DNA from: a bacterium
GTDB taxonomy: Bacteria > Verrucomicrobiota > Kiritimatiellia > SPBP01
DNA length: 64,000 bases
NCBI GenBank assembly: GCA_037135275.1
Contig: JBAXKQ010000001.1
Span: forward strand, 1,172 to 65,171
Reading direction: 5' to 3'
Shown here: positions 11,391 to 53,619 of the stretch, piece after piece
How the letters are laid out: every line of letters starts with the position of its first letter
Numbering within the stretch: the first letter of the stretch is position 1
Program-made: the position numbers and the translations under genes
Notes under the pieces: generated by a model
Seen by the model: the letters and a program-made list of their open reading frames with translations, nothing else
Told to the model about the DNA's origin: nothing
Databases searched by the model: none

Positions 11391-11466
11391 GCCAGCTTAG
11401 CTCAGTTGGTAGAGCAGCTGATTTGTAATCAGCAGGTCTCCGGTTCGAGCCCGGAAGCTGGCTCCA
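11391..11466 (+). tRNA. tRNA-Thr (anticodon TGT)
   Basis: GCCAGCT acceptor, GCTCAGTTGGTAGAGC D-arm, anticodon loop TTTGTAA, GGTTCGAGCCCGG T-arm, and encoded CCA. Confidence 0.85.
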
Positions 11467-25348: not shown

Positions 25349-26346
25349 TTTATTGCTTCTCTCAAGCCGGTGAAAATGCCGTGCTCCCTGTCCGCTATCT
25401 CCAGCAGAATAGTGGACATCGCCGCGTAGGATTCATGCTCGCTGTTGCGATCCTTGATGATCCTGCCGGCAATCGCGGCGAAATCCCGCCAGCGATCGCC
25501 GTTTTCCGTCATTGCACGCGAAAGCGCCATGAGACGCGAATTATCCAGCACGGCGGAGGCCTCCTGGAGAAAGGATGCGTATATGAAGCGGAATCCGCCC
25601 CCGCCGGTCCCGATCTCCTCCTGCATCCTTATGAAGTGGCCAAGGTAGAGCGACGCTTTCTTCTCGCCAAGCTTCTCCGGCCATTTCTTCATCACTCTGG
25701 CGACATGACGGATTCCCCTTACTCCCAGGAACGGGAACGGAATTCCCAGCATGTCGAAGCAGTTCTTGCGGATACCCCTGACGATCGCGCCTGGCAGGTC
25801 AATCTTTGCCGGGACCTTCACCGGGTAATACATCCGCCCCTTCGGCTCAAACATGCCTTTCGCCCAGCGGACGCGCATCAAGTCCGCGCGGCTCAGGGAC
25901 TCGACGTTTTCCATGACGGGGTCGCTTATGAGATACCGCCCATCCTGCCTGCCGAAGACAATGATGTTGTGGGCATTGAAATGAAAACGGTACGGCGCCG
26001 GAAAATATGTCAGGTGAAACACCCCAACCTGCAACCCGACAGGAATGCCCATGGCAAGCGCCCGGTCAAGAGCTTCCATGGATGCTTCCTTGTCCCTGAA
26101 TTTCTGCCTGCAGATCTCGATTCCGAGCGCGGTGGCCGCGCGCTTGAATATCGTGCCGGGGAGGGGCCGGAATGTTGTGGTCGGCATGCCGTTGTGCCTG
26201 AGGATAGGCATGTAGGCAAAGAACAGCCCGGCGCCGATGCCGAATACCATGGACTCGCTGATGTCCACGCCGTGGTATCTCAACAGGTTCGCTGTGGCGC
26301 CATTCTCGCAATGCGCAGACTGGCCGTGTTTGAAATCAATGGTCAT
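25345..26346 (-). CDS. BtrH N-terminal domain / DUF4872-type papain-like protein (predicted ACP-dependent acyl/aminoacyl transferase)
   Basis: HGQSAHCENGATANLLRYHG matches the BtrH_N catalytic-Cys region. The 333 aa length fits the two-domain BtrH_N+DUF4872 architecture. Confidence 0.55.
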   Translation of the reverse strand: MTIDFKHGQSAHCENGATANLLRYHGVDISESMVFGIGAGLFFAYMPILRHNGMPTTTFRPLPGTIFKRAATALGIEICRQKFRDKEASMEALDRALAMGIPVGLQVGVFHLTYFPAPYRFHFNAHNIIVFGRQDGRYLISDPVMENVESLSRADLMRVRWAKGMFEPKGRMYYPVKVPAKIDLPGAIVRGIRKNCFDMLGIPFPFLGVRGIRHVARVMKKWPEKLGEKKASLYLGHFIRMQEEIGTGGGGFRFIYASFLQEASAVLDNSRLMALSRAMTENGDRWRDFAAIAGRIIKDRNSEHESYAAMSTILLEIADREHGIFTGLREAIK

Positions 26347-32345: not shown

Positions 32346-33470
32346 TTACACCGCCTTTCGCGTGGTTCTCACGGCAAGCAAAGTGAAGATCATGCCAAGC
32401 AGCAGCATGCACGCAAAGTCGCGCCACACAACCGCAAACGAAGCGCCCTTGAGGATAATCTCCCTCAGCGCCGACACGAAATACCGCGGCACAACAATGT
32501 ACGTTACCACCTGGATCGGGGCCGGCATGTTGTGTATCGGGAAAATCAGGCCCGACAGGATGATCGAGGGGAGCAGCGACGTGATCACGGCCACCGTGAA
32601 CGCCGTCTGCTGCGACCGCGTGATCGACGAGATCAGTATCCCCCAGCTCAGGGCGGCAAAAAGGAATACCAGCGTCGTGAATGCCAGCAGCAGGTACGAT
32701 CCCTGTACGCGGATGTCGAACAGGATCCGGCCTACCACGAGAATGAGAATCATGGTGAGGAATCCGATCACCACGTAGGGCAACGTCTTTCCAAGGACCA
32801 GCTCAGCCGGCCGCACGGGCGAGACCATCATCTGTTCAATGGTCTCCTGCTCCTTCTCCCGTACAATAGAAAGGCAGGTTGTGATGGCGGCCGACAGCAT
32901 CAGCAGCATGGCAATCAGCCCCGGCACCAGAAACTTGGCGCTGTTGAGTTCCGGGTTGAACCAGATCCGCGGTTCCGTCACGACAACAGGCAGCGACAAC
33001 GAAGCGCCCGCCCGCCGGAGAGCCTCCACCCGGACCCTGCGCGTGGTGCGGTCAACCAGCGCCTCAAGGTACCCGGCTGCGGCCGATGCCGCGTTCGCCT
33101 CGGCGCCGTCCACCAGGAACTGCACCTCAGCCGTCTCGCCGCGGGCCAGCTTCGCCGCGTACCCGGCCGGCACCACGAGAACTGCGCGCGCCTCGCCGCG
33201 GCAGAGAATGTCGTCAGCTTCGGACGGACGCGAGAGCTCATGCACCCGGTCGAAATACGGGTTCTGGAACAGGCCGTCGAGAAGGACCCGGCTCTCCTGC
33301 GTGCGGTCCCCGTCCAGTACCGCAACCGGAATGTGTTTTACGTCGAAGGACAGGGCATACCCGTAGAGCACAAGCAGCAGCGCCGGGACAACGACCAGCA
33401 GGCCAAGCGACAACGGATCTCGCCCGATCTGCCGGAACTCCTTCTTCAGTATCGCGAGAAACCTTTTCAT
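32346..33470 (-). CDS. ABC-2 transporter permease (YbhS/YbhR-like), paralogue of the previous gene
   Basis: Same architecture. The two paralogues start MKRFLAILKKEFRQIGRDP and MRASLHRIGCLLRKEMTQTLRDK. Confidence 0.8.
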   Translation of the reverse strand: MKRFLAILKKEFRQIGRDPLSLGLLVVVPALLLVLYGYALSFDVKHIPVAVLDGDRTQESRVLLDGLFQNPYFDRVHELSRPSEADDILCRGEARAVLVVPAGYAAKLARGETAEVQFLVDGAEANAASAAAGYLEALVDRTTRRVRVEALRRAGASLSLPVVVTEPRIWFNPELNSAKFLVPGLIAMLLMLSAAITTCLSIVREKEQETIEQMMVSPVRPAELVLGKTLPYVVIGFLTMILILVVGRILFDIRVQGSYLLLAFTTLVFLFAALSWGILISSITRSQQTAFTVAVITSLLPSIILSGLIFPIHNMPAPIQVVTYIVVPRYFVSALREIILKGASFAVVWRDFACMLLLGMIFTLLAVRTTRKAV

Positions 33471-34476: not shown

Positions 34477-35802
34477 TCAGAGTTTGCTTCCAGGCACGAC
34501 GGTCTGTCCCGCCGCATGCGTCAGGGCCGCGCGAGCGAGCGCAAGGTCCGCTTGCGCAACCGCCGACTCGTTCTGCGCATCGGTCAACCGCGCGTGGGCG
34601 TCAAGCACATCAGAGTTCCGGACAATGCCGTTCTTCCAGAGCTCTGTGGCCGATTCCAGGTTGAGTTCTGCGCTCTTCCGCGCCCGGGCTGAAAGCTGGA
34701 CCCGCTCAAGCGCGTCCCTGAGCGCGATGAGCGACTCCTTGACATCGAGCGTCACCTGCTCCTCCTGCTGCCGGCGGCGCAACTCCGCCTGGGCGGCCCT
34801 GGCGTCGGCCTCCTCCGCCTTCGCCCGCGCGAGGCCCCAGTCGAGGAGATTCCAGGCGACCGTCACGCCGGCAAAAGCGTCGCCCTTCCATTCTTCGGCA
34901 GGCGGGATATAGAGCATGTTCGGGTTGGCATATTCGTAGCGCGCGGCGAGATATACCTGCGGCTGGAGCGCACCGCGCGCTGCCCGGGCTGTTTCCACGG
35001 CGGCGTCCAGCTCCCTGCCGCGTGCGGCGCATTCCGGCCGGTTCGTCAGCGCCGTGTCGCGCAGCAGTTTCTCGTCCGGCGCTTCACCTGCAACGTCCGC
35101 CGCAATGGGCTCCGGAACGGCGTTCGTGGCCAGCTCAATGCCGGTGAGACGCCATATCTGCGCCCGCGCGTACTCCGCCTGCCGCTGCACCTGCTCGAGC
35201 GCCAGGCGTGTCCGGTCGACCAGCACATCGGTCGCCAGCGCATCGTTGTCAGTCACCAGCCCGGCTTCCCGCATGTTGTGGATATCCGCGGCGTGGGCGG
35301 TCATGCGCCGGACCGCGGCTTCGAGCACATCGCGGGCGCGGTACGCCTTGGCCCAGTTCCAGTAGGCCGACAGCGCCTGCAGGACCACATCGGCGCGGAC
35401 ACCGTCGCGGGCCGCGACGACTGCCTGCTCCTGGAGGCCGGCGGACCGCCTCAGGCCGGCAAGGCGATTCCCGGTGTAGACCGGCTGCAGGAGCGACACC
35501 GCGGCGCCGTACCGCTGTTCGATCGCGGGGATCACAATCATGCCGAGCTGGACGTCCTCCAGGCCCTCGTAGCGCATGGCCCGAGCCTCCAGGTCCAGCG
35601 ATGGAAGGCCATACGCCGTCGCCTGCCTCCCCCTCGCCCTGGCGGCCCTGACTTCCTGGTCGGCTGTGCCGATGGCAAGGCTGTGGCCGACAGCGGCTTT
35701 CACGATCATATCGCTGCCCACAGCCGGAGGTTCATCGGCCGGAACGGCTGTGCCCGGCACAAAGTGGAGCAGGATAAGCGTCAGGACAAGGCGCAGTTTC
35801 AT
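34477..35802 (-). CDS. TolC-family outer-membrane efflux protein
   Basis: It has a signal peptide and two repeats of the coiled-coil/β-strand TolC pattern. It is Ala/Arg-rich with helical repeats. 441 aa. Confidence 0.75.
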   Translation of the reverse strand: MKLRLVLTLILLHFVPGTAVPADEPPAVGSDMIVKAAVGHSLAIGTADQEVRAARARGRQATAYGLPSLDLEARAMRYEGLEDVQLGMIVIPAIEQRYGAAVSLLQPVYTGNRLAGLRRSAGLQEQAVVAARDGVRADVVLQALSAYWNWAKAYRARDVLEAAVRRMTAHAADIHNMREAGLVTDNDALATDVLVDRTRLALEQVQRQAEYARAQIWRLTGIELATNAVPEPIAADVAGEAPDEKLLRDTALTNRPECAARGRELDAAVETARAARGALQPQVYLAARYEYANPNMLYIPPAEEWKGDAFAGVTVAWNLLDWGLARAKAEEADARAAQAELRRRQQEEQVTLDVKESLIALRDALERVQLSARARKSAELNLESATELWKNGIVRNSDVLDAHARLTDAQNESAVAQADLALARAALTHAAGQTVVPGSKL

Positions 35803-40720: not shown

Positions 40721-41988
40721 CAGGTCAAATCTTTCGGTTGCCCGGTGTTGTCCAGCACGCTCTGCCAGAACAGGCCCCGGGTATCGATGTTCTTGCGCGC
40801 CCCAATCGCCAGTTCTGTCGGGATGTGCACGAACTGCCCGTTCCACACCCCGACAACCATCGCGGTCCTGCCTGACATCGCCGCATGAACAGCGTTGCCG
40901 GCAAGCTGGAAGCAGAACACCGAATCATCGGCATTTGCCGCCACGCTGCGGATGAGGTAGGAGGGGTCGATGTACTTGACGGCGACCGGCATGCCCGCCC
41001 TCTTGAAATGGCCGGTGATCTCCGCCTTCAGGTACAGGCCGATGTCACCAAGCGCCTTGTTGCCAGATGCGTCCGCGCCGGAGGTCACCACGAGTTCCTG
41101 GCCGGCGCCTTCCGCCACCACCACGACCGCGTGGGCTTTCCGCCGCAGCCTCTCCTCGAGGAACGACATCACCCTTGCAACCGAAAACGGCGCTTCCGGA
41201 ATCAGCACAAGATTGACGTCGCTGGACGCAAGGGTGGCGTAGGCAGCGACAAATCCTGCTTCCCGGCCCATCAACTTCACAAGTCCGACGCCGTTCCGCA
41301 CGCCCTTCGCCTCCATGTGCGCGCCGTCTATCGCGCTCTGACTCTCCTCCACCGCCGTTTCGAAACCGAAAGATCGCTCGGTGAAGGTGATGTCGTTGTC
41401 TATTGTCTTGGGTATGCCGATAACACTTATAGGAAGCCCGCGCCGCTCTATCTCACGCGCAACAACCAGCGCCCCGCGCTGGGTGCCGTCACCGCCAACA
41501 GTGAACAGTATGTTGATGCCGTTGCGGACCAGGTACTCGACCATTTCCTTGGGATCCTGGCCCCCGCGGGATGTGCCAAGGATCGTGCCGCCGTGCCGGT
41601 GAATGTCGGCCACAACATCGGGATTGAGCTCAAGCGGGAGGTGGCCGAATGACGCGACCAGACCCTCGTAGCCGTACCGGAGGCCGACTATGCTTCTTAC
41701 CCCGTACCTGTACCAGAGAACCATGACCAGGGCGCGGATGACGTCGTTCAACCCCGGACACAGCCCGCCGCAGGTTACCACCGCGGCCCGGACGGCGGCG
41801 GGATCGAAGAAACTCTTGCGCCGCGGGCCGGCTTTTTCAAGCGACGGCGGGTTCCGGTCGCAGCCCATGCACGTGGCAAGGGTCGCATCAACGAGGACCC
41901 GGTCGCCATTCTCAACAAAAGTGGTGGTTTCTACGTTTGAGTCAAATAGAGCTGGACCAAGTGTCGCAATACTGAACTTATCCTGCAT
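40720..41988 (-). CDS. 6-phosphofructokinase (ATP- or PPi-dependent, long form)
   Basis: GGLCPGLN, FTVGGDGT, GIPKTIDND motifs of the PFK-A family. 422 aa. Confidence 0.85.
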   Translation of the reverse strand: MQDKFSIATLGPALFDSNVETTTFVENGDRVLVDATLATCMGCDRNPPSLEKAGPRRKSFFDPAAVRAAVVTCGGLCPGLNDVIRALVMVLWYRYGVRSIVGLRYGYEGLVASFGHLPLELNPDVVADIHRHGGTILGTSRGGQDPKEMVEYLVRNGINILFTVGGDGTQRGALVVAREIERRGLPISVIGIPKTIDNDITFTERSFGFETAVEESQSAIDGAHMEAKGVRNGVGLVKLMGREAGFVAAYATLASSDVNLVLIPEAPFSVARVMSFLEERLRRKAHAVVVVAEGAGQELVVTSGADASGNKALGDIGLYLKAEITGHFKRAGMPVAVKYIDPSYLIRSVAANADDSVFCFQLAGNAVHAAMSGRTAMVVGVWNGQFVHIPTELAIGARKNIDTRGLFWQSVLDNTGQPKDLT

Positions 41989-42215
41989 TCATGTCTCCCT
42001 GCGGACGGGGAATGACCGTTGACACTGGAATACTGGCCAGCACAGATCATCCCCCGACGCGCTCACAATAGGAGCATCCCTGCTGAAACGCAATATCGAA
42101 CAGGAACACCCCGGACAGCGCAGCGGAAGAACCGGAGCACATACGCGTTGCGGTTGTTTGTGATCTTGAGACTCCGCCTTGTGCAGGCGAAGGTAAGCTG
42201 GTATTTTCCTGGGCA

Positions 42216-43106
42216 TTGCCGGAACGCGACGATTCTGACATGACGGAATCATTGAAACATAACAGCGCCAAGCCTCCCGCCCCTCAACCGACCTGGATCG
42301 GGCGAAGCGAAATCCCGGCCATCGAGGGTGCGCTGGAGCCGTCGGCTTATGTCGCGCGCGCCTACCTGGAGGCCCGCGACCGTGGGGGCGAGACGCCAGC
42401 CTGGGCGCGAAAACAGCCGAATGGACAGTGGCTGTTCGACATCGAGTACATAAGGAATGACGCGCAGGTCAACCTCCGCACAATTGGAATTGGCGAGGCG
42501 GCCGCCATGCTCGGCGCTACGCGGCGGGCCGTTCAGACCTGGGTTGACCAGGGAGTCATAGCCGCATCCGGGGGCGCGGACCACACCAGCGGCGAGCGTC
42601 GGCGAATCCTGCGCACCGAGTTCATGCGCGCCCTGCCCCAGCTCAAGAAGCGGCTCGAGACGCCCGCGGTCCTCGGCTTCAAGAGGCAGCGGTCCGAAGT
42701 GCATGGGGCAGGTGTCGCCACCAAGCCAACCCGCTCGCTTCAGCATGCTGAAAGCGTTTCGACACACGAGGCGACCGCCACGCGGAAGGATGCTCTCAAC
42801 ACAGCCACAGCCCCGCATGAGGCAGGAGGCGTAACCACTCAATCGCCAAAGGATGAGGCGCGAAGGGCAAAGGAACGGGCCGCACACACCATCGAGTCCA
42901 TGCTGAGGGAGGCGCGGGACGCAAAACGCATGGAAGAAGAGCAGGAGGCACAGGCAACCAGGATCGCCCGGAACCTGCTGGACGCCGTTTTCAGCAATGA
43001 GCTGACACGCGTCGACGCCATGCTGATGTTCACCGATATGGCGGGACACCAGAACATCCCCGCACAGGTAGTGACCAGGGTCCGGAAGCAGTTTTTTGGC
43101 AGATGA
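42216..43106 (+). CDS. hypothetical protein with predicted helix-turn-helix (excisionase/MerR-like) segment
   Basis: IGIGEAAAMLGATRRAVQTWVDQGVI resembles a DNA-binding HTH. The C-terminal half is charged and low-complexity. Confidence 0.35.
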   Translation: MPERDDSDMTESLKHNSAKPPAPQPTWIGRSEIPAIEGALEPSAYVARAYLEARDRGGETPAWARKQPNGQWLFDIEYIRNDAQVNLRTIGIGEAAAMLGATRRAVQTWVDQGVIAASGGADHTSGERRRILRTEFMRALPQLKKRLETPAVLGFKRQRSEVHGAGVATKPTRSLQHAESVSTHEATATRKDALNTATAPHEAGGVTTQSPKDEARRAKERAAHTIESMLREARDAKRMEEEQEAQATRIARNLLDAVFSNELTRVDAMLMFTDMAGHQNIPAQVVTRVRKQFFGR

Positions 43107-43134
43107 CCCCCCCCAGGCGCTCGCGGCCACTCGG

Positions 43135-43165
43135 TGACGGCAACGGCGTGCAGCTGCAGGCGGCG
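43135..43165. repeat. 31-bp intergenic repeat, copy 2 (GTGACGGCAACGGCGTGCAGCTGCAGGCGGC); contains perfect 10-bp palindrome TGCAGCTGCA (43150–43159)
   Basis: 26/31 identical to 14971–15001, with the same placement just 3' of a plus-strand stop codon. Confidence 0.4.
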
Positions 43166-43341
43166 CCCCCGGATTGTAGCGGATTCAAGCTGCCGGGAAG
43201 ATTTCCGGCAAGAGCCACAACATCACTTTTGCGGCCTGCGCAGGCGATATGAATTGGCTCAAAATGAATTGCGCGCCGGGGCGAAAGAGATAGAATGACG
43301 GCGTTTCACATCGGTGTGCGTGGTTTCTGCCGCCAGACACA

Positions 43342-45903
43342 ATGCGGCGCAACCGGGAAGAATCGGGCATGAGGCGGGTCAAACATCGTTTCTTCTGTGA
43401 TGGTGGAAGCATCTCCTCGTTGAGGCTAGGTCTGTTTGCGGTCTGCCTGATGGCGGCCGGTTATGCGGCGGCCCAGACAAACGTCGCCGGAACCGTTGCG
43501 GTTGCCGGGGTGTACTACAACGACCCGCCCTATCATTTCGTTGATTCCGAAGGCCTGCCCGCCGGTTTCGATATTGACCTGCTCAAGGCCGCCGCAGCCG
43601 CCACCGGCCTGGAGATCAGGATACGGATGGGCACGCCCGACGATATCCGCTCCGCCCTGGCAACCGGCGGAGTCTCAATGGTTGCCGGCACCTTCCAAAC
43701 TGCTGAAATCGCGGACTTTGCCGATTTCTGCACTCCTTATATCCTTGTCCGGTACTCGCTCTTCGCCGGCAGCAACACCAGAGCCAACTCCCCGGATGGC
43801 ATAAGCGGCAGGTCTGTCGTTGTTAGGCGTGGCGACGGCATCGGCCTTTTCGTAAGGACCAACAACTTCTCCGACCGGATCGTGGAAGTCGACTCATACG
43901 AGGATGCGCTGAATCTGGTGGCGTTCGGCCACTACGACTTCGCACTTCTGCCGACAGACAGGGGTCAGTACTCCGCCGATCAATACATGCTTTCGTCAAT
44001 GGTGAAGAGCGTCGGCAAGCCGGTGTGCCGCTCAGGATATGGATTCGTGGTGGCAAAGGGCGAGAAGGCGCTCCTCGATCGGCTCAACCAGGGATTGAGC
44101 AGGATAATCACCGAGGGAAAGTACAAGGAAATCGAGAGCCGGTGGCTTGCCAACTACACAGGGCCGCAGGCCAGGACGGCGGGCTTCCTGTACAGGAACC
44201 GGTTGGGTCTGGCCACTGCCGGACTTGCGCTGCTGGCCTCCTTCGTTGTCGCAAACCTCCTTATGCGGCGCAAGGTCTCAGTCCGAACAACCGAACTGAC
44301 TGCAACAATACGCGATTCCAGAAAGGCAAATGACGACCTGCGTGCGGAAATACATCGAATGGCCGCGATTCTGGGCAGTGCACCCTTCGGAATCATGGTG
44401 TTGACCGGCTGGGACTGGGAGTCGGAGGTCCTCTACTGCAACACAGCCTTCGTCAACCTGTTTGGTTACGAACAGGATGTTCTTCCCACATTCAGAAGCC
44501 TGGCAAACCTGATCTTCCCTGATGACGAATATCGCAACCGCTTGCAGGCGAGGTGGAACAACCTGGGCGAACAGAGCTCGTCGGGTGGCGGCTTCACCCT
44601 GTCGGCAAGCACCATGGACGGCAAGAAGAGGCACATTGACTTCCGGGCCGTGCCGATCGGCGACGGCCGGGTGGTCGTGATGTTCTCGGACGTCACCGAA
44701 AAAGAGTTGATGGAGGAGGAGCGGCAGCGCGTTGATGAGCAGATCCGCCAGTCCCAGAAGCTCGAGGCCATGGGCCAACTCGCCGGCGGGGTGTCACACG
44801 ACCTCAACAACCTGCTCGCTCCCATTCTCGGGAACGCGCAGCTCCTCCTGATGGAACTCGGCGCCGACAAGGATAAGGGAGTGCTTGCGCAGGAGATTGT
44901 CAGCGCGGCAAAGCGCGCCGGCGAACTTACGAAGCAGCTGCTTGCGTACGCCAGGAAGGGTAAATTCCAGGTGATCCAGGTGGACATCCACAGCAGCATC
45001 CATGAAGTCACCACGCTCCTTCAGCGCAGCATAGACAAGCTTATAGAGGTGAAGGAAGACTTGCAGGCCGCCAAGCCGGTCATAATGGGCGATCCAACCC
45101 AGATCAACGGCGCCTTTCTCAACCTGGGCGTGAATGCCAGGGATGCCATGCCCAACGGCGGCCAACTTATCTTCTCGACGCGAATGATAACCGCGGACAA
45201 GGAGATATGCCGCCGCCTGTCCCACGAGATCACCCCGGGCGAGTACCTGCAGGTGCGAGTGAGCGACACGGGAACCGGCATGACCAAGGAGGTAAGGCAG
45301 CGTCTCTTCGAGCCATTCTTCACCACCAAGCAGATCGGCAAAGGTACCGGCCTGGGCCTTGCCGCCGTATTCGGGTGCGTGAAGAATCACCACGGCACGA
45401 TTACCGTGGAAAGCGAACCCGGCAAAGGCACAACATTTTCCATCCTGTTGCCGGCCGTCGGCAAAGCCACAACGGAGGAGAAGAAGGAAGCCGCCTTCAC
45501 GCAGGGCACCGGGCACGTACTGATCATCGACGACGAGGAGACTGTGCGACGTTTCCTCGGCCGCACGCTTGAAAAGCTCGGTTATCGCGTCTCCCTCTGC
45601 CAGGACGGAGTGGCCGGTGTCGAATTCTACAAGAACAACTTCAAGGAGATCGACCTGGTCATCCTCGACATGATCATGCCTAACCTGGACGGCAAGGGAG
45701 CCCTCACTCAGCTCAAAAAGATCAACCCCGCCATCAATGCGCTGATAGTATCCGGATACTCCACCGACAAGACTGCGGTGGAGTGCATGAAACTCGGCGC
45801 GAGAGGTTTCCTTGCCAAACCGTGCCAGATTGACGAACTCGCCCGGTCGGTGTCGTTGTGCATAGGGGCCGGGATCGAACAGACAGAGGCGATACTGAAG
45901 TGA
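43342..45903 (+). CDS. hybrid sensor histidine kinase/response regulator with periplasmic solute-binding (SBP_bac_3-like) domain and PAS domain
   Basis: Signal/TM, a periplasmic SBP-like domain, a TM helix, PAS, HisKA (VSHDLNNLLAPILG), HATPase (GTGLGLAAV) and a C-terminal REC domain (LIIDDEE...ILDMIMP). Confidence 0.85.
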   Translation: MRRNREESGMRRVKHRFFCDGGSISSLRLGLFAVCLMAAGYAAAQTNVAGTVAVAGVYYNDPPYHFVDSEGLPAGFDIDLLKAAAAATGLEIRIRMGTPDDIRSALATGGVSMVAGTFQTAEIADFADFCTPYILVRYSLFAGSNTRANSPDGISGRSVVVRRGDGIGLFVRTNNFSDRIVEVDSYEDALNLVAFGHYDFALLPTDRGQYSADQYMLSSMVKSVGKPVCRSGYGFVVAKGEKALLDRLNQGLSRIITEGKYKEIESRWLANYTGPQARTAGFLYRNRLGLATAGLALLASFVVANLLMRRKVSVRTTELTATIRDSRKANDDLRAEIHRMAAILGSAPFGIMVLTGWDWESEVLYCNTAFVNLFGYEQDVLPTFRSLANLIFPDDEYRNRLQARWNNLGEQSSSGGGFTLSASTMDGKKRHIDFRAVPIGDGRVVVMFSDVTEKELMEEERQRVDEQIRQSQKLEAMGQLAGGVSHDLNNLLAPILGNAQLLLMELGADKDKGVLAQEIVSAAKRAGELTKQLLAYARKGKFQVIQVDIHSSIHEVTTLLQRSIDKLIEVKEDLQAAKPVIMGDPTQINGAFLNLGVNARDAMPNGGQLIFSTRMITADKEICRRLSHEITPGEYLQVRVSDTGTGMTKEVRQRLFEPFFTTKQIGKGTGLGLAAVFGCVKNHHGTITVESEPGKGTTFSILLPAVGKATTEEKKEAAFTQGTGHVLIIDDEETVRRFLGRTLEKLGYRVSLCQDGVAGVEFYKNNFKEIDLVILDMIMPNLDGKGALTQLKKINPAINALIVSGYSTDKTAVECMKLGARGFLAKPCQIDELARSVSLCIGAGIEQTEAILK

Positions 45904-47105
45904 AACGTCTCCAGCCCGGCATCGACGAGCTTATTTCCCGGCACAGCGACTGGTTGAGGGGCAGACGCATCGGCCTCGTGAGCCACGTCGCCGCCGTTGA
46001 TTCCCTCGGCTGCCCGTCGGCAACCCGGCTCGCCCGGCATTGCGGAGCCGGCCTCGTCTGCATCTTCTCGCCGGAGCATGGCTTCTTCGGGTCCGCCCCG
46101 CCGGGCGCATCGCTCCGCTCCCGCCGGCACCCCGGCCTCGGACTGCCGGTTTACTCGCTGTACGGCGAGACCAGGGAGCCGACACCTGCCATGCTGTCCG
46201 GCATCGACACCATCGTCTTCGACATACAGGACATCGGGGCGCGCCCCTACACCTATGTCTCCACCCTGCGCCTCGTCCTCGAGGCGGCCGCAAAAGCCGG
46301 GAAGAGAGTGATCGTGGCTGACCGCCCCGTGCCGCTGCCTTGTGTTGTCGACGGACCGATGACCGAGGATAACTGTTCGAGTTTCGTGTCGCTGATCCCC
46401 TCACCCATGGCCTATGGCATGACACCGGGCGAAGCGGCCACCTGGCTGGTGAAGACACTCCGGCTCGACCTGCATCTGGAGGTCGCGCCCATGTCCGGCT
46501 ACACGCGCCAACCGGGCAGGGACCCGGGCTGGCCGCCATGGATACCTCCGTCCCCCGGCATTCGCGCCTGGGAATCGGCAATGTGTTTCCCGGCAACCGT
46601 GTGTTTTGAAGGCCTCGGCGCGATCGACCATGGACGCGCAACCAACATGGCTTTCCAGGTGATCGGGAGCGAATGGATGCGTGGCGGGGATGTTGCCGGC
46701 TACCTTTCCGGCTTGAAACTGCCGGGCGTCATGTTCTACCCGCACAACTATGTCCCTTGCGCGGTCGACAGCGGGACGGCAATGCTGGACGGCATCCGCA
46801 TGACCATCACCGAACCCGGTCGTTTCCGGCCTGTCCGCACGGCAGTGTCGATCATTCACTGCCTCCAGGACCTGTACGGCAGGCGACGCGTCTGGGCCAC
46901 CGGCAAGAGCCGGCCCGAATTCTTCGATAAGCTCTTCGGCACGACATCAGTCAGGGAAGCCCTTCTCGACGGCGAGGACGGGGCGACAATAGCCGCCAGG
47001 TGGGATGCTGCCCTTGCCGCTTTCCGGTCGGCGCGAAAGCCGTGCCTCCTGTACAGCGACACCGAATCCCGTGGCACAGCCCACAGGAAAAGGGCAAGCC
47101 GGTGA
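45900..47105 (+). CDS. DUF1343 family protein (NamZ-like exo-β-N-acetylmuramidase)
   Basis: IGLVSHVAAVDS ... IVFDIQDIGARPYTYVSTL pattern of the DUF1343/YzbB family. A GTG start overlaps the kinase TGA stop (GTGA). Confidence 0.65.
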   Translation: MKRLQPGIDELISRHSDWLRGRRIGLVSHVAAVDSLGCPSATRLARHCGAGLVCIFSPEHGFFGSAPPGASLRSRRHPGLGLPVYSLYGETREPTPAMLSGIDTIVFDIQDIGARPYTYVSTLRLVLEAAAKAGKRVIVADRPVPLPCVVDGPMTEDNCSSFVSLIPSPMAYGMTPGEAATWLVKTLRLDLHLEVAPMSGYTRQPGRDPGWPPWIPPSPGIRAWESAMCFPATVCFEGLGAIDHGRATNMAFQVIGSEWMRGGDVAGYLSGLKLPGVMFYPHNYVPCAVDSGTAMLDGIRMTITEPGRFRPVRTAVSIIHCLQDLYGRRRVWATGKSRPEFFDKLFGTTSVREALLDGEDGATIAARWDAALAAFRSARKPCLLYSDTESRGTAHRKRASR

Positions 47106-49063
47106 AACGCCCCGTGAAAGCCGTCCTGCTCGCCGCAGGCCTGGGTATGCGCATGCGGCCGCTGACAGATAACCTTCCAAAGGCGATGCTGCCGCTTTGG
47201 GGCAAGCCGCTCGTTGGCCACGTGATAGACCTCGTGAGGAGCTGGGGGGTGCGCGAGATCCTCGTCAATGCCCACCACTCCCCCGCGCCGCTGATTCAAT
47301 ACCTCATGAGACGGCCGAAGGATGGAATAATGATCAACATATCCTTCGAGCCCGACCTGCTGGGCACAGGCGGCGCGCTCAAACATGCCGCCTGGTTTGC
47401 CGGTGACGCCCCTTTCTGGATCGTAAACACAGACATAGCGGTTGACGTCTCCCCGCTCCCGCTCCTTGCGGAGTTCCACAAGCACCCGGCCATTGCCGCT
47501 CTCTGGCTGGATGCCCAGGCGGGCCCGCGGACTGTCGAAATGCACGACCACCAAGTCGGTTGTTTCAGCAGCGCCCGCCCGGGCACCACCGGCACATACA
47601 CCTTCTGCGGGCTTCAGCTGGTGTCTCCCGCCCTGCTCCGGTACATGCCTGACGGCAGGTGTTTCTCGCTGGTGGAGATCTACGAGAGAGCGCTGGCCGC
47701 GGGCGAGGAGATCCGCGGGCTGACCGTCCCGGACTCCTACTGGGCGGATCTCGGAACACCTCCGGCGTATCGCGAGGCACATCGCGAGGTGTTCCGGCGC
47801 AACAGGGCGGGGCTGCCGGGCGGCCGCCTCCTCAACCGTTCGGGAATACGAACCACGGCGTCTCTCCGGCGCTCTGGCATCACCGTGAGCGGGTACGCCT
47901 CGGTCGGCGCTGGAGCTTCTGTCGGGACTGGCGCCACGATTGTCGAATCAGTCGTATGGGACGGGGCACAGGTCAAACCCGGCTGCAGGCTTGCCAACTC
48001 GATCGCCGCTGGAGGCGCTGTCGTATCGGGAGACGTAGAGGGCGTTGCAGCACCGTTCCGGCCCGGCAGCGGATCATCACCACTCACCGTCCGGGCGCTT
48101 AGCGCCATCGGATGGAAAACCGCCCGGACAACTGCAATCAGCCTGGGCGCCAGGGGGTCGGACAGGTCGTTCACACGCCTCTCGGCGGCCGGCCGGAACG
48201 CAATCATGATCAGGTACGGAACCAGCCGGCCCGAGAATGGACGGTATGCGTCACACGCCCTGTTCCTCAAAGCCGGGGGCGTGCCTGTGCCCGCGGTGCA
48301 GGCCGATATACCCGAAGACCGGACGGTCATCATGGAGTATGTCACAGGGCCGTCGCTGGAGCAGCTGGCGGAATCGCTGTCGTCATCGGCCCTGGAGAAG
48401 AGATACCGGCACGTTCTCGATGCCGTGCTGCTTATGCACGGCATCCCGCAAAAGTTGATCAAGCGAAGAGGGATGAATCTGGAGCCGCAGTTCTCAGCTG
48501 CCGTCTATTCTTGGGAGCGGGATCTCGTGGCCAGGCATTTCCTGCGAGGCTGGCTGAATCTGGAAGAACCTGTCGTGGCAAGTGTCGTGCGGGAGCTGGA
48601 GTCGGTTGCCGACAGACTCGCTGCGGCCCCGCTGGTTCTCGTGCACCGGGACCTGCAGTCCAGCAACATCATCTGGTCACGAAACCGGCCGGTCTTAATT
48701 GACTTCCAGGGAATGCGCCTGGGCCCCGCCGTCTACGACCTGGCCTCGCTGCTGTGCGATCCATATGTGCAGCTTCGACCCGCCGTGCAGTTGCGCCTGC
48801 TGGAGTACTATGCAGCGCGCACAGCCCGGCCGGAACAGGTGAAGGAGCTGTTCTGGTGGGCCGCGGTCCAGCGGCTTGCCCAGGCTCTTGGCGCATTCGG
48901 CCGCCTTGGCGCAAGCCGGGACACCAGGGGCTTTGCGCGTCACATTGCTCCTGGCCTCGTCATGATGGACCGTGCGCTCTCACATGTCGAAGGGCTGGAC
49001 CGGACACGAACGCTGGTACGCCGGCTGGTGTCGACATCCGCGGCCCGGGCTGATGGAGGGTAG
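47102..49063 (+). CDS. bifunctional fusion: N-terminal sugar-1-phosphate nucleotidyltransferase (MurU-like) + left-handed β-helix + C-terminal anomeric sugar kinase (AmgK-like, APH fold)
   Basis: N-terminus KAVLLAAGLGMRMRPLTDNLPKAMLPL (NTP-transferase). Middle has hexapeptide repeats (GAGASVGTGATIVESVVWDGAQV). C-terminus has HRDLQSSNII (Brenner motif) and IDFQGM (DFG-like). A GTG start overlaps the namZ stop (GTGA). Confidence 0.65.
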   Translation: MKRPVKAVLLAAGLGMRMRPLTDNLPKAMLPLWGKPLVGHVIDLVRSWGVREILVNAHHSPAPLIQYLMRRPKDGIMINISFEPDLLGTGGALKHAAWFAGDAPFWIVNTDIAVDVSPLPLLAEFHKHPAIAALWLDAQAGPRTVEMHDHQVGCFSSARPGTTGTYTFCGLQLVSPALLRYMPDGRCFSLVEIYERALAAGEEIRGLTVPDSYWADLGTPPAYREAHREVFRRNRAGLPGGRLLNRSGIRTTASLRRSGITVSGYASVGAGASVGTGATIVESVVWDGAQVKPGCRLANSIAAGGAVVSGDVEGVAAPFRPGSGSSPLTVRALSAIGWKTARTTAISLGARGSDRSFTRLSAAGRNAIMIRYGTSRPENGRYASHALFLKAGGVPVPAVQADIPEDRTVIMEYVTGPSLEQLAESLSSSALEKRYRHVLDAVLLMHGIPQKLIKRRGMNLEPQFSAAVYSWERDLVARHFLRGWLNLEEPVVASVVRELESVADRLAAAPLVLVHRDLQSSNIIWSRNRPVLIDFQGMRLGPAVYDLASLLCDPYVQLRPAVQLRLLEYYAARTARPEQVKELFWWAAVQRLAQALGAFGRLGASRDTRGFARHIAPGLVMMDRALSHVEGLDRTRTLVRRLVSTSAARADGG

Positions 49064-49073
49064 CGACAGATCC

Positions 49074-50663
49074 ATGGCCAACACAACTGAAACAAGAATG
49101 CCGTGGGATCTGCTGACGTTCATCCTCATCGGGCTCTTCGCCATGTTCCAGGCAATCCAATGGCCCGACCTGCCGCGGTTCATGGACGTCTACTATCACC
49201 TGTCCGTTGCCAACGGCTTCTCGGCGGCAGGTGGCTATGTCTCGCACGCGTTCTGGGAGTACGCCCCTGTCGGCAGGCCGCACCTGTATCCGCCGCTGCT
49301 CCACTTTGTCATGCTTGGCCTGTCCAAGCTCGGTCTCTCGTGGATATCCGTAGGCCGACTGGTCGAATGCCTTGCCCTGCCACTGTTTCTACTGGCACTC
49401 GGAGTGACAGTGAAAAGGATCAACTCGTCCGGCGCCGCCTTCTTTTCCGTCCTGATCGCCTCGTCATTCTTTTCGCTCTACCTCGACATCGGGATATTGC
49501 TGCCTTCCACACTGGCCATCACCCTCGGGTTGCTTGCCCTGACCGCGGTTCACAGCGGCAGGACAATAGCCGGCGCCATCCTGCTTGGGCTGGCGTTTTA
49601 CTCGCACATATACATGGCTGGCATGATTTCGGTCGCAGTCGCGGCATACGGCCTGTGTTCGCCGGGCCTCAGGGCGCGGGCGTTTGCAGCAATTCTCTTC
49701 GCAGTCATCCTCGCTGCGCCGCTGTTCGGCCACATCCTCCGGTACGGGGAGTTCTTCTCGCACATCAGCGTGAAGGAATCCCGCATCCTTGAGATCCACC
49801 CACTCGTCTACCCGCTGGCTGCGGCAGGCCTGATCCTCGCGGTGCGTGGAGGAACAAACTGGAGCGCCCCGGCCGGAATGGCCCTTGCAATGCTCCCGCT
49901 CCTCTTCACGCATAACGTGCGGTTCCTGGGCGGGTACGGCATGATAGGGTTCATATGGCTGGGTGGGATCGGCCTTTACCTGGCCGGACTCCGGTTTGCC
50001 GTCTCGATACGCGCGCAAACCGCCCTCGTCGGCGCAGCCCTGCTGATCTTCTTCGGCATTGCGCCAGTCCTGCACATGGACACCACGGAAACAAAGGTCC
50101 GCGCCAGGTTTTTCGACAGTACTATTACGCACTTCTTTCTCCCTGATCACCTCCGCACCGGCAGGTCAAAGGAACATTCCATCTACGGGCTGCCCGGATT
50201 GCCCGAAGACTATGGCAGAATAGCAGCCATCGTCAGCGCCAACAGTGGAAAGAACGACATCATATGGGCTGACTCCGAATACCAGGGCGCGATAGTCGCC
50301 CTGCTGGCCGGGCGCGCGACCTCCTCCGCCACAATGCGTGAAATCCGCGCATCAAGTCAGTTTGATGCGCAGGCCCTTTCCCGCGTGTTGATCTGGTTCA
50401 AAAGGCCAGAGGAGGACATCCGGACCAGGACGCTGCCGCCAGCCACCCGTTACAACCTCCAGCTTCTCGCAGAGACCGACTCAGCGTGCGTCTTCCTCAA
50501 CCCCGCTCATTGCCCCGAAGTGATGGCGCCGGCTCCACTGCTGCGCTCAGGCTGGATCGCCTTCATCCTCCTTGTGCTCGCCGCGCTGGCCGCGCTCGAT
50601 ATTCTGCGCGGGCCGTGGGCCAGGCGAAATAATATTGGCAATGGCGAATCGCTCGTGCAATAA
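49074..50663 (+). CDS. large polytopic membrane protein (≥11 TM), possible GT-C-fold glycosyltransferase/ligase-like
   Basis: The hydrophobicity pattern gives ≥11 TM segments, with a ~150-aa C-terminal soluble domain and a final TM. I recognise no diagnostic motif. Confidence 0.4.
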   Translation: MANTTETRMPWDLLTFILIGLFAMFQAIQWPDLPRFMDVYYHLSVANGFSAAGGYVSHAFWEYAPVGRPHLYPPLLHFVMLGLSKLGLSWISVGRLVECLALPLFLLALGVTVKRINSSGAAFFSVLIASSFFSLYLDIGILLPSTLAITLGLLALTAVHSGRTIAGAILLGLAFYSHIYMAGMISVAVAAYGLCSPGLRARAFAAILFAVILAAPLFGHILRYGEFFSHISVKESRILEIHPLVYPLAAAGLILAVRGGTNWSAPAGMALAMLPLLFTHNVRFLGGYGMIGFIWLGGIGLYLAGLRFAVSIRAQTALVGAALLIFFGIAPVLHMDTTETKVRARFFDSTITHFFLPDHLRTGRSKEHSIYGLPGLPEDYGRIAAIVSANSGKNDIIWADSEYQGAIVALLAGRATSSATMREIRASSQFDAQALSRVLIWFKRPEEDIRTRTLPPATRYNLQLLAETDSACVFLNPAHCPEVMAPAPLLRSGWIAFILLVLAALAALDILRGPWARRNNIGNGESLVQ

Positions 50664-50783
50664 TGAAACAAGTAGGTAGTTTCCTGGCACCTGTCCACTG
50701 AGTTTGCAGGGCAGGATTTCTTACCGGTCCGGGGGGCGGCTGCGGCCCGGCTTTGGAAGACCACCGCCGAGAGGGAGGAGACA

Positions 50784-51965
50784 ATGAGCCCGGTAATCAG
50801 AACATCATCGGCTCCGTCAACGAATGCGGGTCCCGCAAAGACGTCCCTGATGCAGAAGGCGGTTACTGAAAAGGCCGCTGTTGCCGGCACAAAACTGTCC
50901 AGGAAGCGAGTACCTGGCGCAAAAGCCATCGTGAACAAGGAACTGCCCGCTTTTTCCAGACAGCTTTCCGCGATGCTTTCCGCCGGCATGCCCATCGTCA
51001 CGTCACTCACAGCCCTTCACGAACAAATCTCCAACCAGAACTTCAAGGTCGTTGTCGGACAGATACGACAGAGCATTGAGAATGGATCCGCTTTCTCGGA
51101 ATCGCTGAAAGCGTTTCCAAGCGTGTTCAACGATCTGTACATTAATATGATTCGCGGCGGCGAGCAGGGCGGGCAGCTTGCCGAAACTATCGGCCGTATC
51201 GCCGACTTCCTGGAAAGTGCCGCGAAACTCAGGCGCAAGGTGAAGTCGGCCATGAGCTATCCGGTGGCCGTCATGGGCATTGCCCTGGCCCTCGCCACCC
51301 TGATGATCATTTTCATTGTCCCGGTGTTCCAGGAGATGTTCGAGCAGTTCGGCGGCAAGTTACCAGGCCCTACACAGTTCCTGGTGAATGTCAGCGATGG
51401 CATACGAACATGGTGGTACATCGTATTTCCGGCGGTATTCGCCCTGTACTACGTCGTGAAGAAATGGGCTGGAACGGCCTCCGGCCAGTTTATCCTTGCC
51501 CGGTTCTACCTGAAAATGCCTGTTATCGGAGCCCTGGTGCAGAAAGTTGCCATGGCCCGTTTCGCCAGGACCTTCGCCCAGCTTATTCATAGCGGTGTCC
51601 CGATTCTGACCGCACTGGACATAACCGCAGGAGCGGCAGGTAATAAGGTTGTGGAAAAGGCCGTCCGCGACGGGTTGGAAAGTGTCGAAAAAGGAGAGCC
51701 TTTGTCGGCTTGCCTGGCCACAAAGCCATGTTTTACGCCAATCCTTGTGCACATGCTGGCTGCCGGCGAAAAGACCGGCAAGGTTGATGAAATGATGGAC
51801 AATATTGCCACATTCTACGAAGACGAAGTCGATGGCATGCTCAGTTCGTTGACGTCCTTGCTCGAACCACTCCTCATGGTCTTCCTGGGTGCAACGATCG
51901 GTGGCATCGTTATATGTATGTTCCTCCCCATCTTCAAGCTGGGCGATCTCGTCAGCAAAGGATAG
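50784..51965 (+). CDS. type IV pilus assembly / type II secretion platform protein (PilC/GspF family)
   Basis: Two T2SSF repeats. FSRQLSAMLSAGMPIV and FARTFAQLIHSGVPIL are the duplicated GspF motifs. Confidence 0.85.
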   Translation: MSPVIRTSSAPSTNAGPAKTSLMQKAVTEKAAVAGTKLSRKRVPGAKAIVNKELPAFSRQLSAMLSAGMPIVTSLTALHEQISNQNFKVVVGQIRQSIENGSAFSESLKAFPSVFNDLYINMIRGGEQGGQLAETIGRIADFLESAAKLRRKVKSAMSYPVAVMGIALALATLMIIFIVPVFQEMFEQFGGKLPGPTQFLVNVSDGIRTWWYIVFPAVFALYYVVKKWAGTASGQFILARFYLKMPVIGALVQKVAMARFARTFAQLIHSGVPILTALDITAGAAGNKVVEKAVRDGLESVEKGEPLSACLATKPCFTPILVHMLAAGEKTGKVDEMMDNIATFYEDEVDGMLSSLTSLLEPLLMVFLGATIGGIVICMFLPIFKLGDLVSKG

Positions 51966-52230
51966 CTGTTTGAGCATAGGCGAAACTGGCGCATTAGCAG
52001 TCTTCGCACTTTCGTGAAAAAACGCCCTATCACGCCATGTTTGCAGGGGTTTTGTCGCATTTGAGATGTTTTAGCTTTGATTCCAGTCGCAATCTTGATA
52101 GCCTCCTTTGTTGTTAATGACATCTGCCGGAGAATCAACCCGCAGGGTTGGCAGTCAGGCGTAGGCCTGCAATCAACCCAGACGTAGATGGCTACAGTTT
52201 GTTGTTCCCGGCCGCAGAGGGTGGCACAGC

Positions 52231-53619
52231 ATGGCGCGAATACTACTAGTCGATGACGAACCCAGCATCCTTAGTGTGCTCAACACACTTCTGACTGTTG
52301 AAGGCTACCAGGTGGTCCCCATCCAGGATGGCAACAAAGCCGTTCAGGCCATAAAGTCGGAGGAATTCGACTTGATGATCTCCGACATACGCATGACCCC
52401 GATCAGCGGAATGGAGCTGCTCAGGCTTGTGCACGATGTGCGCCCGTCGATGGCCGTAATCATGGTAACTGCGTTCGGATCCGTCGAAACCGCCGTGGAA
52501 GCACTCCGAATGGGGGCCTATGACTATGTTACGAAGCCCTTCAAGATAGATGAGCTTCTCATCACCGTCGAAAGAGCCCTCGAGTACAAGAAGACAATGT
52601 CCGAAAACGTCGATCTGAAGGCCCAGGTGGGCGCTTTGTACAAGTTCGAAAGCATAGTCGCAGAGAGCCCGACAATGAGGAATCTCTGCGAGATGCTCGA
52701 ACACGTGGCCCCCACCGATACAACCGTCCTCATTTCCGGCGAAAGCGGCAGCGGAAAGTCTCTTATTGCTCGCACGCTGCACGAACACAGCAGTCGCAAG
52801 GGCGCCAAGTTCGTGTCGGTAAATTGTGAGGCTGTTCCGATCGCCATGCTTGAGGCTGAGCTGTTTGGCTACGCCAAAGGAGCATCACAAGAGGATCCCG
52901 CCGGAAAAGAGGGCGCTTTCGAGTCAGCAACCGGTGGCACTGTCTACCTTGCCGGCATAGAGACAATGCCCCTTGGAATTCAAGAGAAGCTTGTGAGAAT
53001 GCTTCAGGAGAAGGAGATTGCGCGTGTAGGTGGCACCTCCAAGACCCGCGTGAATATACGGATTCTTGCAGGCACCAGCATCAATTTGGAGCGTCTTATC
53101 AGGGAGGGCCGGTTCAGGGAAGACCTCTACTACCGCCTGAGCGTGATTCCCATGGAAATCAAGCCCCTGCGGGACCGGAAGGAAGATATCCTTCCGCTCG
53201 TCTACCACACGATTCTAAAGGAACTCGGCGCAGGGGCCGAAATGCCTGCCCTTGAGCCCCAAGTGCGGGATATCCTGATCAACTACACTTGGCCAGGAAA
53301 CGCCCGCGAACTGGTGTCCGCCGTGAAACACGCGGTTTCCCTGGCAAAGAACAAGGTCATCGGCAAGAGTGACCTGCCCCCGGATATCGTGGCTGCTGTG
53401 AAGTCGACCGGCACCACACCAGCGGCGCCAGCCGGACCGGCCGACGAGGCCCGTGGCAGATCTCTCAAGGCCTTCCTTCGCACCAAAGAGAAGGAATATG
53501 TCGAGCAGGTGCTTGAACATACTCAGGGCGACAAGAGCAAGGCTGCAAAGGCGCTCAAGATCAGTCTTGCTACACTTTATCGTAAATTGCCTGACAAAAG
53601 CAAAGAATCAGGCCTTTAG
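52231..53619 (+). CDS. σ54-dependent response regulator (NtrC/PilR family)
   Basis: REC domain (ILLVDDEPSIL...MISDIRMTP), AAA+ σ54 activator domain (GESGSGKS, GAFESATGGTVYL, ESEL-like GAFE), and a C-terminal Fis-type HTH. Confidence 0.85.
   Translation: MARILLVDDEPSILSVLNTLLTVEGYQVVPIQDGNKAVQAIKSEEFDLMISDIRMTPISGMELLRLVHDVRPSMAVIMVTAFGSVETAVEALRMGAYDYVTKPFKIDELLITVERALEYKKTMSENVDLKAQVGALYKFESIVAESPTMRNLCEMLEHVAPTDTTVLISGESGSGKSLIARTLHEHSSRKGAKFVSVNCEAVPIAMLEAELFGYAKGASQEDPAGKEGAFESATGGTVYLAGIETMPLGIQEKLVRMLQEKEIARVGGTSKTRVNIRILAGTSINLERLIREGRFREDLYYRLSVIPMEIKPLRDRKEDILPLVYHTILKELGAGAEMPALEPQVRDILINYTWPGNARELVSAVKHAVSLAKNKVIGKSDLPPDIVAAVKSTGTTPAAPAGPADEARGRSLKAFLRTKEKEYVEQVLEHTQGDKSKAAKALKISLATLYRKLPDKSKESGL

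Follow-up and report, generated by a model that had tools for sequence, protein, structure and literature searches.

The locus described here raises the question of why a signalling protein, a muramidase and a composite sugar-activating enzyme should be encoded by three genes which overlap from stop to start. It is located at 43342-49063 of a 64,000-nucleotide (nt) stretch of contig JBAXKQ010000001.1 (assembly GCA_037135275.1; Kiritimatiellia, SPBP01), referred to below as the window. According to the open reading frame (ORF) table and the raw sequence, the order on the + strand is 5′ to 3′ a hybrid histidine kinase, a NamZ homologue and a protein in which a MurU-like transferase, a short left-handed beta-helix (LbH) and an AmgK-like kinase are fused. 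In Pseudomonas, AmgK and MurU together convert N-acetylmuramic acid (MurNAc) to MurNAc-1-phosphate (MurNAc-1-P) and then to UDP-MurNAc (summarised in PMC8054146 and PMC13041923). We consider it probable that NamZ works with the fused protein in a cytoplasmic salvage line, in which MurNAc released by NamZ is converted via MurNAc-1-P to UDP-MurNAc. All of the parts belong to known families; what appears to be new is their bifunctional or trifunctional form, the added LbH, a NamZ without a signal peptide and, in particular lineages, the coupling to hybrid kinases. In the literature searched we found no account of an AmgK/MurU enzyme made as one chain; the "fusion" matches examined there were tags or other proteins.

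Gene order, start codons and overlaps

The features of the locus are as follows, with the source of each assignment in brackets (aa, amino acids).

43342-45903, + strand: hybrid sensor histidine kinase, 853 aa, stop codon TGA at 45901-45903 (ORF and Pfam)
43504-44151, + strand: periplasmic SBP_bac_3 domain of the kinase, aa 55-270 (Pfam)
Within the kinase, + strand: hydrophobic segments at the N-terminus and at about aa 285-308, flanking the SBP domain (translation)
Within the kinase, + strand: PAS, aa 339-451; HisKA, aa 477-539; HATPase_c, aa 583-705; receiver, aa 726-836 (Pfam)
45900-45903, + strand: GTGA kinase/NamZ junction, NamZ start codon GTG 45900-45902 over kinase stop codon TGA 45901-45903
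45900-47105, + strand: NamZ-family (glycoside hydrolase family 171, GH171) exo-beta-N-acetylmuramidase homologue, 401 aa, without a signal peptide (Pfam, PDB 4k05)
47102-47105, + strand: GTGA NamZ/fused-gene junction, fused-gene start codon GTG 47102-47104 over NamZ stop codon TGA 47103-47105
47102-47806, + strand: MurU-like sugar-1-phosphate nucleotidyltransferase domain, aa 1-235 (NF045761, PDB 4y7t/4y7u, neighbour-joining tree)
47873-48061, + strand: short LbH, about aa 258-320, four rungs (AlphaFold 2 model, Foldseek, ManC profile)
48119-49063, + strand: AmgK-like APH-fold sugar kinase domain, about aa 340-653, and stop codon (Pfam APH, NF045759, PDB 3csv)

An earlier, sequence-only reading of this DNA had placed GTGA overlaps at both junctions and proposed this gene order, with the transferase N-terminal, the LbH in the middle and the kinase C-terminal in the fused protein. 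The ORF table and the sequence bear this out, except that the product counted from GTG 47102 has 653 aa rather than the 654 it had given. The NamZ ORF, ending at 47105, is read in the frame of GTG 45900, and the ORF ending at 49063 in that of GTG 47102. The longest mechanical ORFs open further upstream (45858 for NamZ and 47000 for the fused gene), and the identical NCBI protein, P0001, has 649 aa, as would result from starting at GTG 47114. A purine-rich GGAAAAGGG stretch is located about 6 nt upstream of GTG 47102. Homologues of the fused protein open with the same M/V-K-R-P residues, and we have kept 47102 over 47114 because of this shared N-terminus.

Overlaps of 4 nt between stop and start are common in this genome, and the window contains at least six more between neighbours on one strand (19004-19007, 24599-24602, 25345-25348, 26343-26346, 33467-33470 and 35799-35802). 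An overlap alone therefore means little and it is conservation in diverged genomes that counts. In 19 of 32 NamZ-linked loci, with fused proteins 41-63% identical to that of the window, the fused gene has a candidate start that would overlap the NamZ stop as NTGA, and this conservation exceeds chance. A promoter and terminator scan of 41900-52300 gave counts equal to those of shuffled sequence, with no sigma-70-like site between the three genes, and neither supports nor refutes a single transcript. Over the whole window, the sole Rfam matches were two tRNA genes on opposite strands (10953-11463), far from the locus; no riboswitch or leader was found.

The fused protein resembles MurU and AmgK

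Pfam recognises NTP_transferase, a weak LbH_EIF2B match and APH (3.8e-20) in the fused protein. Scored as a whole against NCBIfam, it reaches 107 bits with mycobacterial ManC, 106 with MurU and 49 with AmgK, all far below the curated cut-offs. The tie between ManC and MurU is resolved when the domains are scored separately. The transferase domain alone gives 109.3 bits with MurU (NF045761), 74 with archaeal GlmU and 72.5 with ManC, the GlmU models together spanning 37-74 bits, and the kinase domain alone gives 51.1 bits with AmgK (NF045759), 31 with Bud32 and 12 with homoserine kinase. Pfam Choline_kinase scores 16.5 bits on the fused protein, below its cut-off of 29.

The best PDB sequence match of the transferase is 4y7t, the MurU of P. 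putida. The only significant one of the kinase domain is 3csv, whose aligned fragment reaches 163.5 bits with the second AmgK model, NF045698, and which, judged by this score, is itself an AmgK-type protein. Neighbour-joining analysis of the catalytic part of the transferase recovers the fused family as monophyletic in 100/100 bootstraps; it joins the MurU references in 88/100, and the GDP-mannose pyrophosphorylases (GMPPs) and NDP-sugar synthases in 0/100. In the corresponding kinase tree, which has only two outgroups (ThiK and SrkA of E. coli), the fused kinases and the AmgK references split from these in 59/60 bootstraps; nearest to the kinase domain of the window protein is a Bacteroides AmgK-like protein (36/60). 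The motifs HRDxxSxN, IDFQ(G/D)xxxGPxxYDLxSLL and QRxxxxLG are common to the fused kinases and the AmgK references and absent from ThiK and SrkA. The identity assigned to the two halves in the sequence-only reading is thus supported: scored separately, the transferase matches MurU better than ManC or GlmU, and the kinase matches AmgK better than choline or homoserine kinases.

The predicted catalytic motifs are intact in both domains. The G-x-G-x-R...P-K loop and the (E/G)TGG, N-x-D and W-x-D-x-G-T motifs of nucleotidyltransferases align with P. putida MurU, and ten transferase residues (P26, K27, G88, T89, G91, N109, D111, W214, D216 and G218) are invariant in 59 homologues, as are H515, R516, D517, N522, D534 and Q536 in the kinase domain. 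An AlphaFold 2 model built with the same number of homologues (predicted local distance difference test score, pLDDT, 93.6; predicted template modelling score, pTM, 0.88) was compared with known structures using Foldseek. It matches MurU 4y7u over 233 columns at 32% identity, with a target-normalised template modelling (TM) score of 0.87; the best match of the kinase fold is 3csv, with a target-normalised TM of 0.77.

The segment between the two domains forms beta strands at 261-268, 279-285, 296-302 and 311-318 in the model. It matches the C-terminal region of NCBIfam ManC (1.2e-7) and has no other significant match, in particular none to an acetyltransferase family of Pfam or NCBIfam. MurU is described as a minimal enzyme without a C-terminal beta-helix (Renner-Schneck et al. 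2015, in the form in which it is cited in PMC6981941). In the window protein, the LbH is probably a linker or an oligomerisation element, as in related pyrophosphorylases.

Distribution of the fused protein and association with NamZ

A word-indexed search returned 463 full-length homologues of the fused protein, and an exhaustive search (E <= 1e-30) gave 678 representatives after clustering at 50% identity. The family occurs in 512 species genomes. Each of the best 80 loci comes from a metagenome-assembled genome of Kiritimatiellia, Lentisphaerota/Victivallales, Verrucomicrobiota or unclassified bacteria. Public names of the homologues are mostly generic ("phosphotransferase", "sugar phosphate nucleotidyltransferase"), with one JGI entry called N-acetylmuramate 1-kinase.

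A NamZ gene is located directly upstream, on the same strand, at 33 of the 71 loci with enough upstream sequence, and within 4 kb at two more. It is the only conserved neighbour: no transporter, amidase or NagZ is consistently linked to the fused gene, and where NamZ is lacking the neighbours are varied. The paper describing NamZ reports it as mostly missing from organisms that have the anabolic AmgK/MurU route (PMC8054146).

In three homologues, NamZ_N, NamZ_C, NTP_transferase and APH occur in a single chain: P0281 (1046 aa), P0300 (1047 aa, with a repeated linker) and P0302 (truncated). Their mutual identity is only 36-46%, and the genes for P0281 and P0300 come from different NCBI assemblies and contain no N and no internal stop. 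At the level of sequence, nothing argues more strongly than these triple fusions for a kinase-transferase enzyme acting on what NamZ releases. A further candidate, a 1045-aa ORF at locus L049, was rejected as an artefact: a run of N at about 4350-4540 lies inside its NamZ gene and is translated as XXXX.

The second gene of the locus itself encodes what is, by its Pfam scores, a clear member of the GH171/NamZ family. NamZ_N is found at 1.6e-59 (201.2 bits; Pfam cut-off 26.9) and NamZ_C at 2.2e-31 (110.1 bits; cut-off 25), and PDB 4k05 matches residues 3-377 with 191.6 bits. Characterised NamZs carry signal sequences or are secreted; that of B. subtilis is secreted and the three of Tannerella forsythia all have predicted signal peptides (PMC8054146; bioRxiv 10.1101/2021.12.02.470905). 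A hydrophobic signal sequence was looked for in the N-terminus of the window NamZ, VKRLQPGIDELISRH, and none was seen. Nor did reading the residues of 30 linked loci reveal any signal-peptide-like hydrophobic stretch between the start codon and the conserved N-terminal motif. NamZ would thus act in the cytoplasm, because in the triple fusions it is joined to ATP- and UTP-dependent domains.

Two side observations concern loci without NamZ. Upstream of the fused gene, in divergent orientation, there is often a TsaB-like gene of the Pfam TsaD family (for example at 7139-7831 of L081 and at seven loci more); downstream of it, a sigma-70-like gene is frequent. Together with a TsaE-AmgK fusion in Rhizobium (see below), the TsaB-like neighbour hints at an old neighbourhood of AmgK-type kinases with genes for N6-threonylcarbamoyladenosine (t6A).

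Proposed pathway and alternatives

In the salvage line that we favour, NamZ would remove the terminal beta-linked MurNAc from imported peptidoglycan saccharides such as MurNAc-GlcNAc (GlcNAc, N-acetylglucosamine). The C-terminal AmgK-like domain would phosphorylate free MurNAc, and perhaps GlcNAc too, at C1, and the N-terminal MurU-like domain would convert MurNAc-alpha-1-P and UTP to UDP-MurNAc. The latter would join peptidoglycan synthesis downstream of MurA and MurB, bypassing both. The LbH would be a structural or oligomerisation linker inherited from pyrophosphorylases of the GMPP/GlmU type. The substrates, the nucleotide, substrate import and any channelling between active sites are inferred.

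Several points weigh against this proposal. NamZ is not nearby in half of the family loci, and we identified no transporter that would import the presumed substrate. The product of GH171 enzymes varies and may be a monosaccharide or a disaccharide (bioRxiv 10.1101/2021.12.02.470905). Identity to the references is low (27-33% for MurU and 22-24% for AmgK), and the trees are neighbour-joining trees with few outgroups, that of the kinase, with two, being a weak test. The LbH that follows the transferase is absent from MurU, and transferase and LbH together are best matched in fold by GDP-mannose pyrophosphorylases. Finally, both domains fall below the equivalog cut-offs, the transferase with 109.3 bits against 250 (NF045761) and 94.3 against 370 (NF045697), and the kinase with 51.1 against 550 (NF045759) and 33.7 against 500 (NF045698).

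We calibrated these cut-offs with a tblastn search of PLSDB, which is annotated and includes some chromosomes filed as plasmids. The halves of the fused protein match adjacent kinase and transferase genes in Xanthomonas (where the gene is named murU), Legionella, Rhizobium and Bacteroides. On the AmgK model (cut-off 550), the syntenic kinases score 259, 263, 110 and 64 bits, respectively, and on the MurU model the syntenic transferases score 265, 238, 142 and 134 bits. Since syntenic AmgK and MurU genes also fail them, the NCBIfam cut-offs are too strict as a test of membership. By these scores, the window protein would be about as distant from the Pseudomonas-type models as is the Bacteroides pair.

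The principal alternative is that GlcNAc or a different N-acetylhexosamine is preferred, so that the fused enzyme, made of an NahK/AmgK-type kinase and a GlmU-pyrophosphorylase-like transferase with its LbH, would mainly produce UDP-GlcNAc. The NCBIfam AmgK family is indeed named N-acetylmuramate/N-acetylglucosamine kinase, GlcNAc is also freed when NamZ cleaves MurNAc-GlcNAc (PMC8054146), an LbH extension is typical of enzymes of the GlmU/GMPP type and not of MurU, and half of the loci are without NamZ. We nevertheless find this unlikely: the transferase scores far better on MurU than on any GlmU model and groups with MurU in the tree, the LbH has only about four rungs and matches no acetyltransferase family, and MurNAc is the sugar suggested by the muramidase fusions found in three lineages. 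Much less probable still is that a GMPP/ManC-like pyrophosphorylase has been combined with a kinase whose sugar has nothing to do with peptidoglycan, as in FKP-like GDP-sugar salvage, with the GH171 enzyme acting on another glycan. Many of the hosts belong to the Planctomycetes-Verrucomicrobia-Chlamydiae (PVC) group, whose members are known as glycan degraders. The top Foldseek matches of transferase and LbH, over 349 columns, are GDP-mannose pyrophosphorylases (e.g. 7x8j), the whole protein scores marginally higher on ManC than on MurU, and FKP shares the domain order (PMC6468028). The lead of ManC disappears, however, once the LbH is left out (72.5 against 109 bits for MurU), the identity over those 349 columns is 22% compared with 32% to MurU, the grouping with GMPPs is never recovered, the kinase has an AmgK-like APH fold and not a GHMP fold, and the GH171 activities reported in PMC8054146 and 10.1101/2021.12.02.470905 are all on MurNAc linkages.

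The domain order, with the transferase N-terminal and an APH-fold kinase C-terminal, is also that of a LicC/LicA-type fusion. The LicCA protein of Treponema is such a fusion of a choline kinase with a CTP:phosphocholine cytidylyltransferase. The window protein has weak matches to PDB 1jyk LicC (39 bits, limited to the N-terminal 55 residues) and to Pfam Choline_kinase. The former covers only the generic nucleotide-binding loop and the latter is below its cut-off, MurU and AmgK are clearly better matches, and both the linkage and the fusions to NamZ would have no rationale in choline metabolism; we give this explanation almost no weight.

Comparison with known systems

If the fused protein does act in MurNAc salvage, it would carry out the two reactions of AmgK and MurU of Pseudomonas putida and P. 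aeruginosa, with the same two folds. It differs from them in being a single polypeptide with the domains in reverse order and an LbH inserted, at 22-33% identity. The amgK and murU genes of Xanthomonas and Legionella are neighbours that overlap by 4 nt; those of Legionella lie in an lptD context, whereas the partner of the fused gene of the window is NamZ. T. forsythia combines GH171 exo-muramidases (NamZ1/2/3) with AmgK and MurU (10.1101/2021.12.02.470905), which are a working pair in E. coli (PMC13041923). These are separate proteins and the NamZs, with their signal peptides, have been proposed to be periplasmic (10.1101/2021.12.02.470905), whereas the window NamZ has no signal peptide and is probably translationally coupled to the activating enzyme, to which NamZ is fused in three lineages.

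The closest likeness in layout is FKP of Bacteroides fragilis, in which an N-terminal Rossmann pyrophosphorylase with an LbH precedes a C-terminal sugar kinase and which converts a free sugar to a nucleotide sugar (PMC6468028). FKP is a tetramer of about 105 kDa using GTP and fucose, and its kinase has the GHMP fold where that of the window protein has the APH fold. No sequence relationship between the two was detected, and we regard the likeness as an analogy and not as family membership. The GDP-mannose pyrophosphorylases (VTC1, GMPPB and Leishmania GDP-MP) and GlmU likewise have a nucleotidyltransferase followed by an LbH. They are only 20-23% identical to the window protein (MurU, 32%), are excluded by the tree and have no kinase domain, and the LbH of the window protein is shorter.

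Kinases of the AmgK type are often fused to other modules directly upstream of murU, as in Rhizobium (TsaE-AmgK) and Bacteroides finegoldii (AmgK with a RapZ-C-like part), where, unlike in the window protein, the transferase remains a separate gene. The B. finegoldii gene (L086, 2935-4365) encodes a 476-aa AmgK-like kinase whose C-terminal 140 residues match the C-terminal part of the RNase adapter RapZ; the NCBI annotation pipeline (PGAP) gives the name RapZ to the entire protein.

The hybrid histidine kinase and the signalling link

Its domain content makes the 853-aa protein a hybrid histidine kinase anchored in the membrane, with its sensor in the periplasm. Pfam finds HisKA at 2.9e-10, HATPase_c at 8.6e-21 and Response_reg at 2.3e-26, and the H-box SHDLNNLL is present in the translation. 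The periplasmic domain resembles the binding proteins for Lys/Arg/Orn, Gln and cystine. The suggestion in the sequence-only reading that it senses cell-wall fragments finds no support in a domain that resembles amino-acid-binding proteins. From the overlap, the kinase is probably translationally coupled to NamZ.

An SBP_bac_3 hybrid kinase of the same architecture is located directly upstream of NamZ at three other loci, L011, L097 and L098, where the identity of the fused protein to that of the window is 63%, 69% and 57%, respectively. The L011 kinase, an 861-aa ORF, is 66% identical over 93% of the query (tblastn), and at L098 the kinase-NamZ-fused triad is kept while both flanks differ. In another clade, at six loci, the gene upstream of NamZ encodes a cytoplasmic hybrid kinase with the architecture REC-PAS-HisKA-HATPase-REC (REC, receiver); the fused proteins there are 44-77% identical among themselves and 42-45% to that of the window. 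An ATGA kinase/NamZ overlap is found at all seven genome-scan loci with an upstream kinase (L011 and the six REC-PAS loci) and also at L097, so that nine loci overall, with two different sensor architectures, have a 4-nt overlap at this junction. The two kinase types resemble each other no more than they resemble unlinked kinases (about 200 bits in either comparison), and kinase similarity thus offers no evidence of a common ancestry of the kinase-NamZ link across both types.

Signalling genes also occur in other arrangements. At L099, NamZ and the fused gene are immediately preceded by a dense same-strand cluster (1-7681) which encodes a REC-SpoIIE phosphatase, a STAS protein, an NMT1-type binding protein, a HAMP kinase, several single receivers and a REC-kinase-REC hybrid. 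In Rhizobium sp. NLR16a (L100, NZ_CP072868.1, 4175-9016), which belongs to a distant phylum, an 860-aa PAS-PAS-HisKA-HATPase kinase overlaps the start of the TsaE-AmgK fusion by 4 nt, and the chain continues with a murU-type transferase, addB and addA. Most NamZ-linked loci have unrelated genes upstream instead (VWA, citrate synthase, HtrA, GH26). The signalling link is recurrent, yet in three or four lineages only.

One idea is that salvage of peptidoglycan sugars is wired directly to two-component signalling in PVC-group bacteria, where hybrid kinases of at least two sensor designs would repeatedly have been coupled in translation to a cytoplasmic NamZ and a bi- or trifunctional enzyme activating MurNAc, with the PAS kinase-amgK-murU chain of Rhizobium as a parallel. 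The kinase may sense cell-wall-derived amino acids or fragments and set the capacity for salvage, or the salvage flux may report the state of the envelope. We regard this wiring as doubtful. That the kinase is functionally unconnected to the salvage enzymes, the overlaps simply reflecting tight operon packing, has a markedly better chance, though one slightly short of even. It would fit with the six further 4-nt overlaps in the window, the unrelated upstream genes at most NamZ-linked loci, the lack of similarity between the two kinase types beyond that of unlinked kinases, the amino-acid-binder-like sensor domain and the absence of a DNA-binding partner encoded next to the kinase. It fits less well with the persistence of the triad at L098, at 57% identity and between changed flanks, with a second deep clade in which a different, REC-PAS hybrid kinase overlaps NamZ by the same ATGA, with the entire signalling cluster at the third locus, L099, or with the 4-nt overlap of the Rhizobium PAS kinase and amgK.

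Flanking genes

One further gene follows the fused gene closely:

49074-50663, + strand: multi-pass membrane protein, 529 aa from ATG (ORF; the 521-aa NCBI version starts at 49098)

It opens 10 nt after the stop codon of the fused gene, with which it is probably co-transcribed, and has no Pfam or NCBIfam match. Its 56 homologues, several of them from Omnitrophota, are all named hypothetical; two carry PF13231 PMT_2, a GT-C glycosyltransferase family, and one (P0122) is 69% identical. At the same position, L097 has a 551-aa gene without a Pfam match and L011 and L098 have none. The gene is not a conserved part of the module.

Upstream, 235 nt before the kinase gene, a 296-aa protein (42216-43106, + strand) carries an excisionase/MerR-type HTH_17 motif (aa 92-138) and a long charged C-terminal tail; it is kept at the same place in L011, at 50% identity. 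Downstream, 50784-53619 (+ strand) encodes a T2SSF platform protein of the type II secretion/type IV pilus kind followed by a sigma-54-dependent response regulator (REC-AAA-HTH_8), in an order which is the same in L011 and L097. This regulator could be a phosphorelay partner, but there is no evidence tying it to the hybrid kinase.

Implications

The AmgK/MurU shortcut and NamZ have been known as separate proteins. Here their genes are linked and, in three lineages, the proteins themselves form one chain. The coupling to hybrid histidine kinases, found more than once, poses a question about signalling that experiments could address. Labelling of peptidoglycan with modified MurNAc requires co-expression of AmgK and MurU (PMC13041923, PMC11957156), and a natural single-chain enzyme could be a compact tool both for such labelling and for the chemoenzymatic synthesis of UDP-MurNAc. 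For the organisms themselves, the arrangement would define a complete cytoplasmic route from the glycan end to UDP-MurNAc in a little-studied part of the bacterial tree, and it suggests that many PVC-group bacteria scavenge muramic acid.

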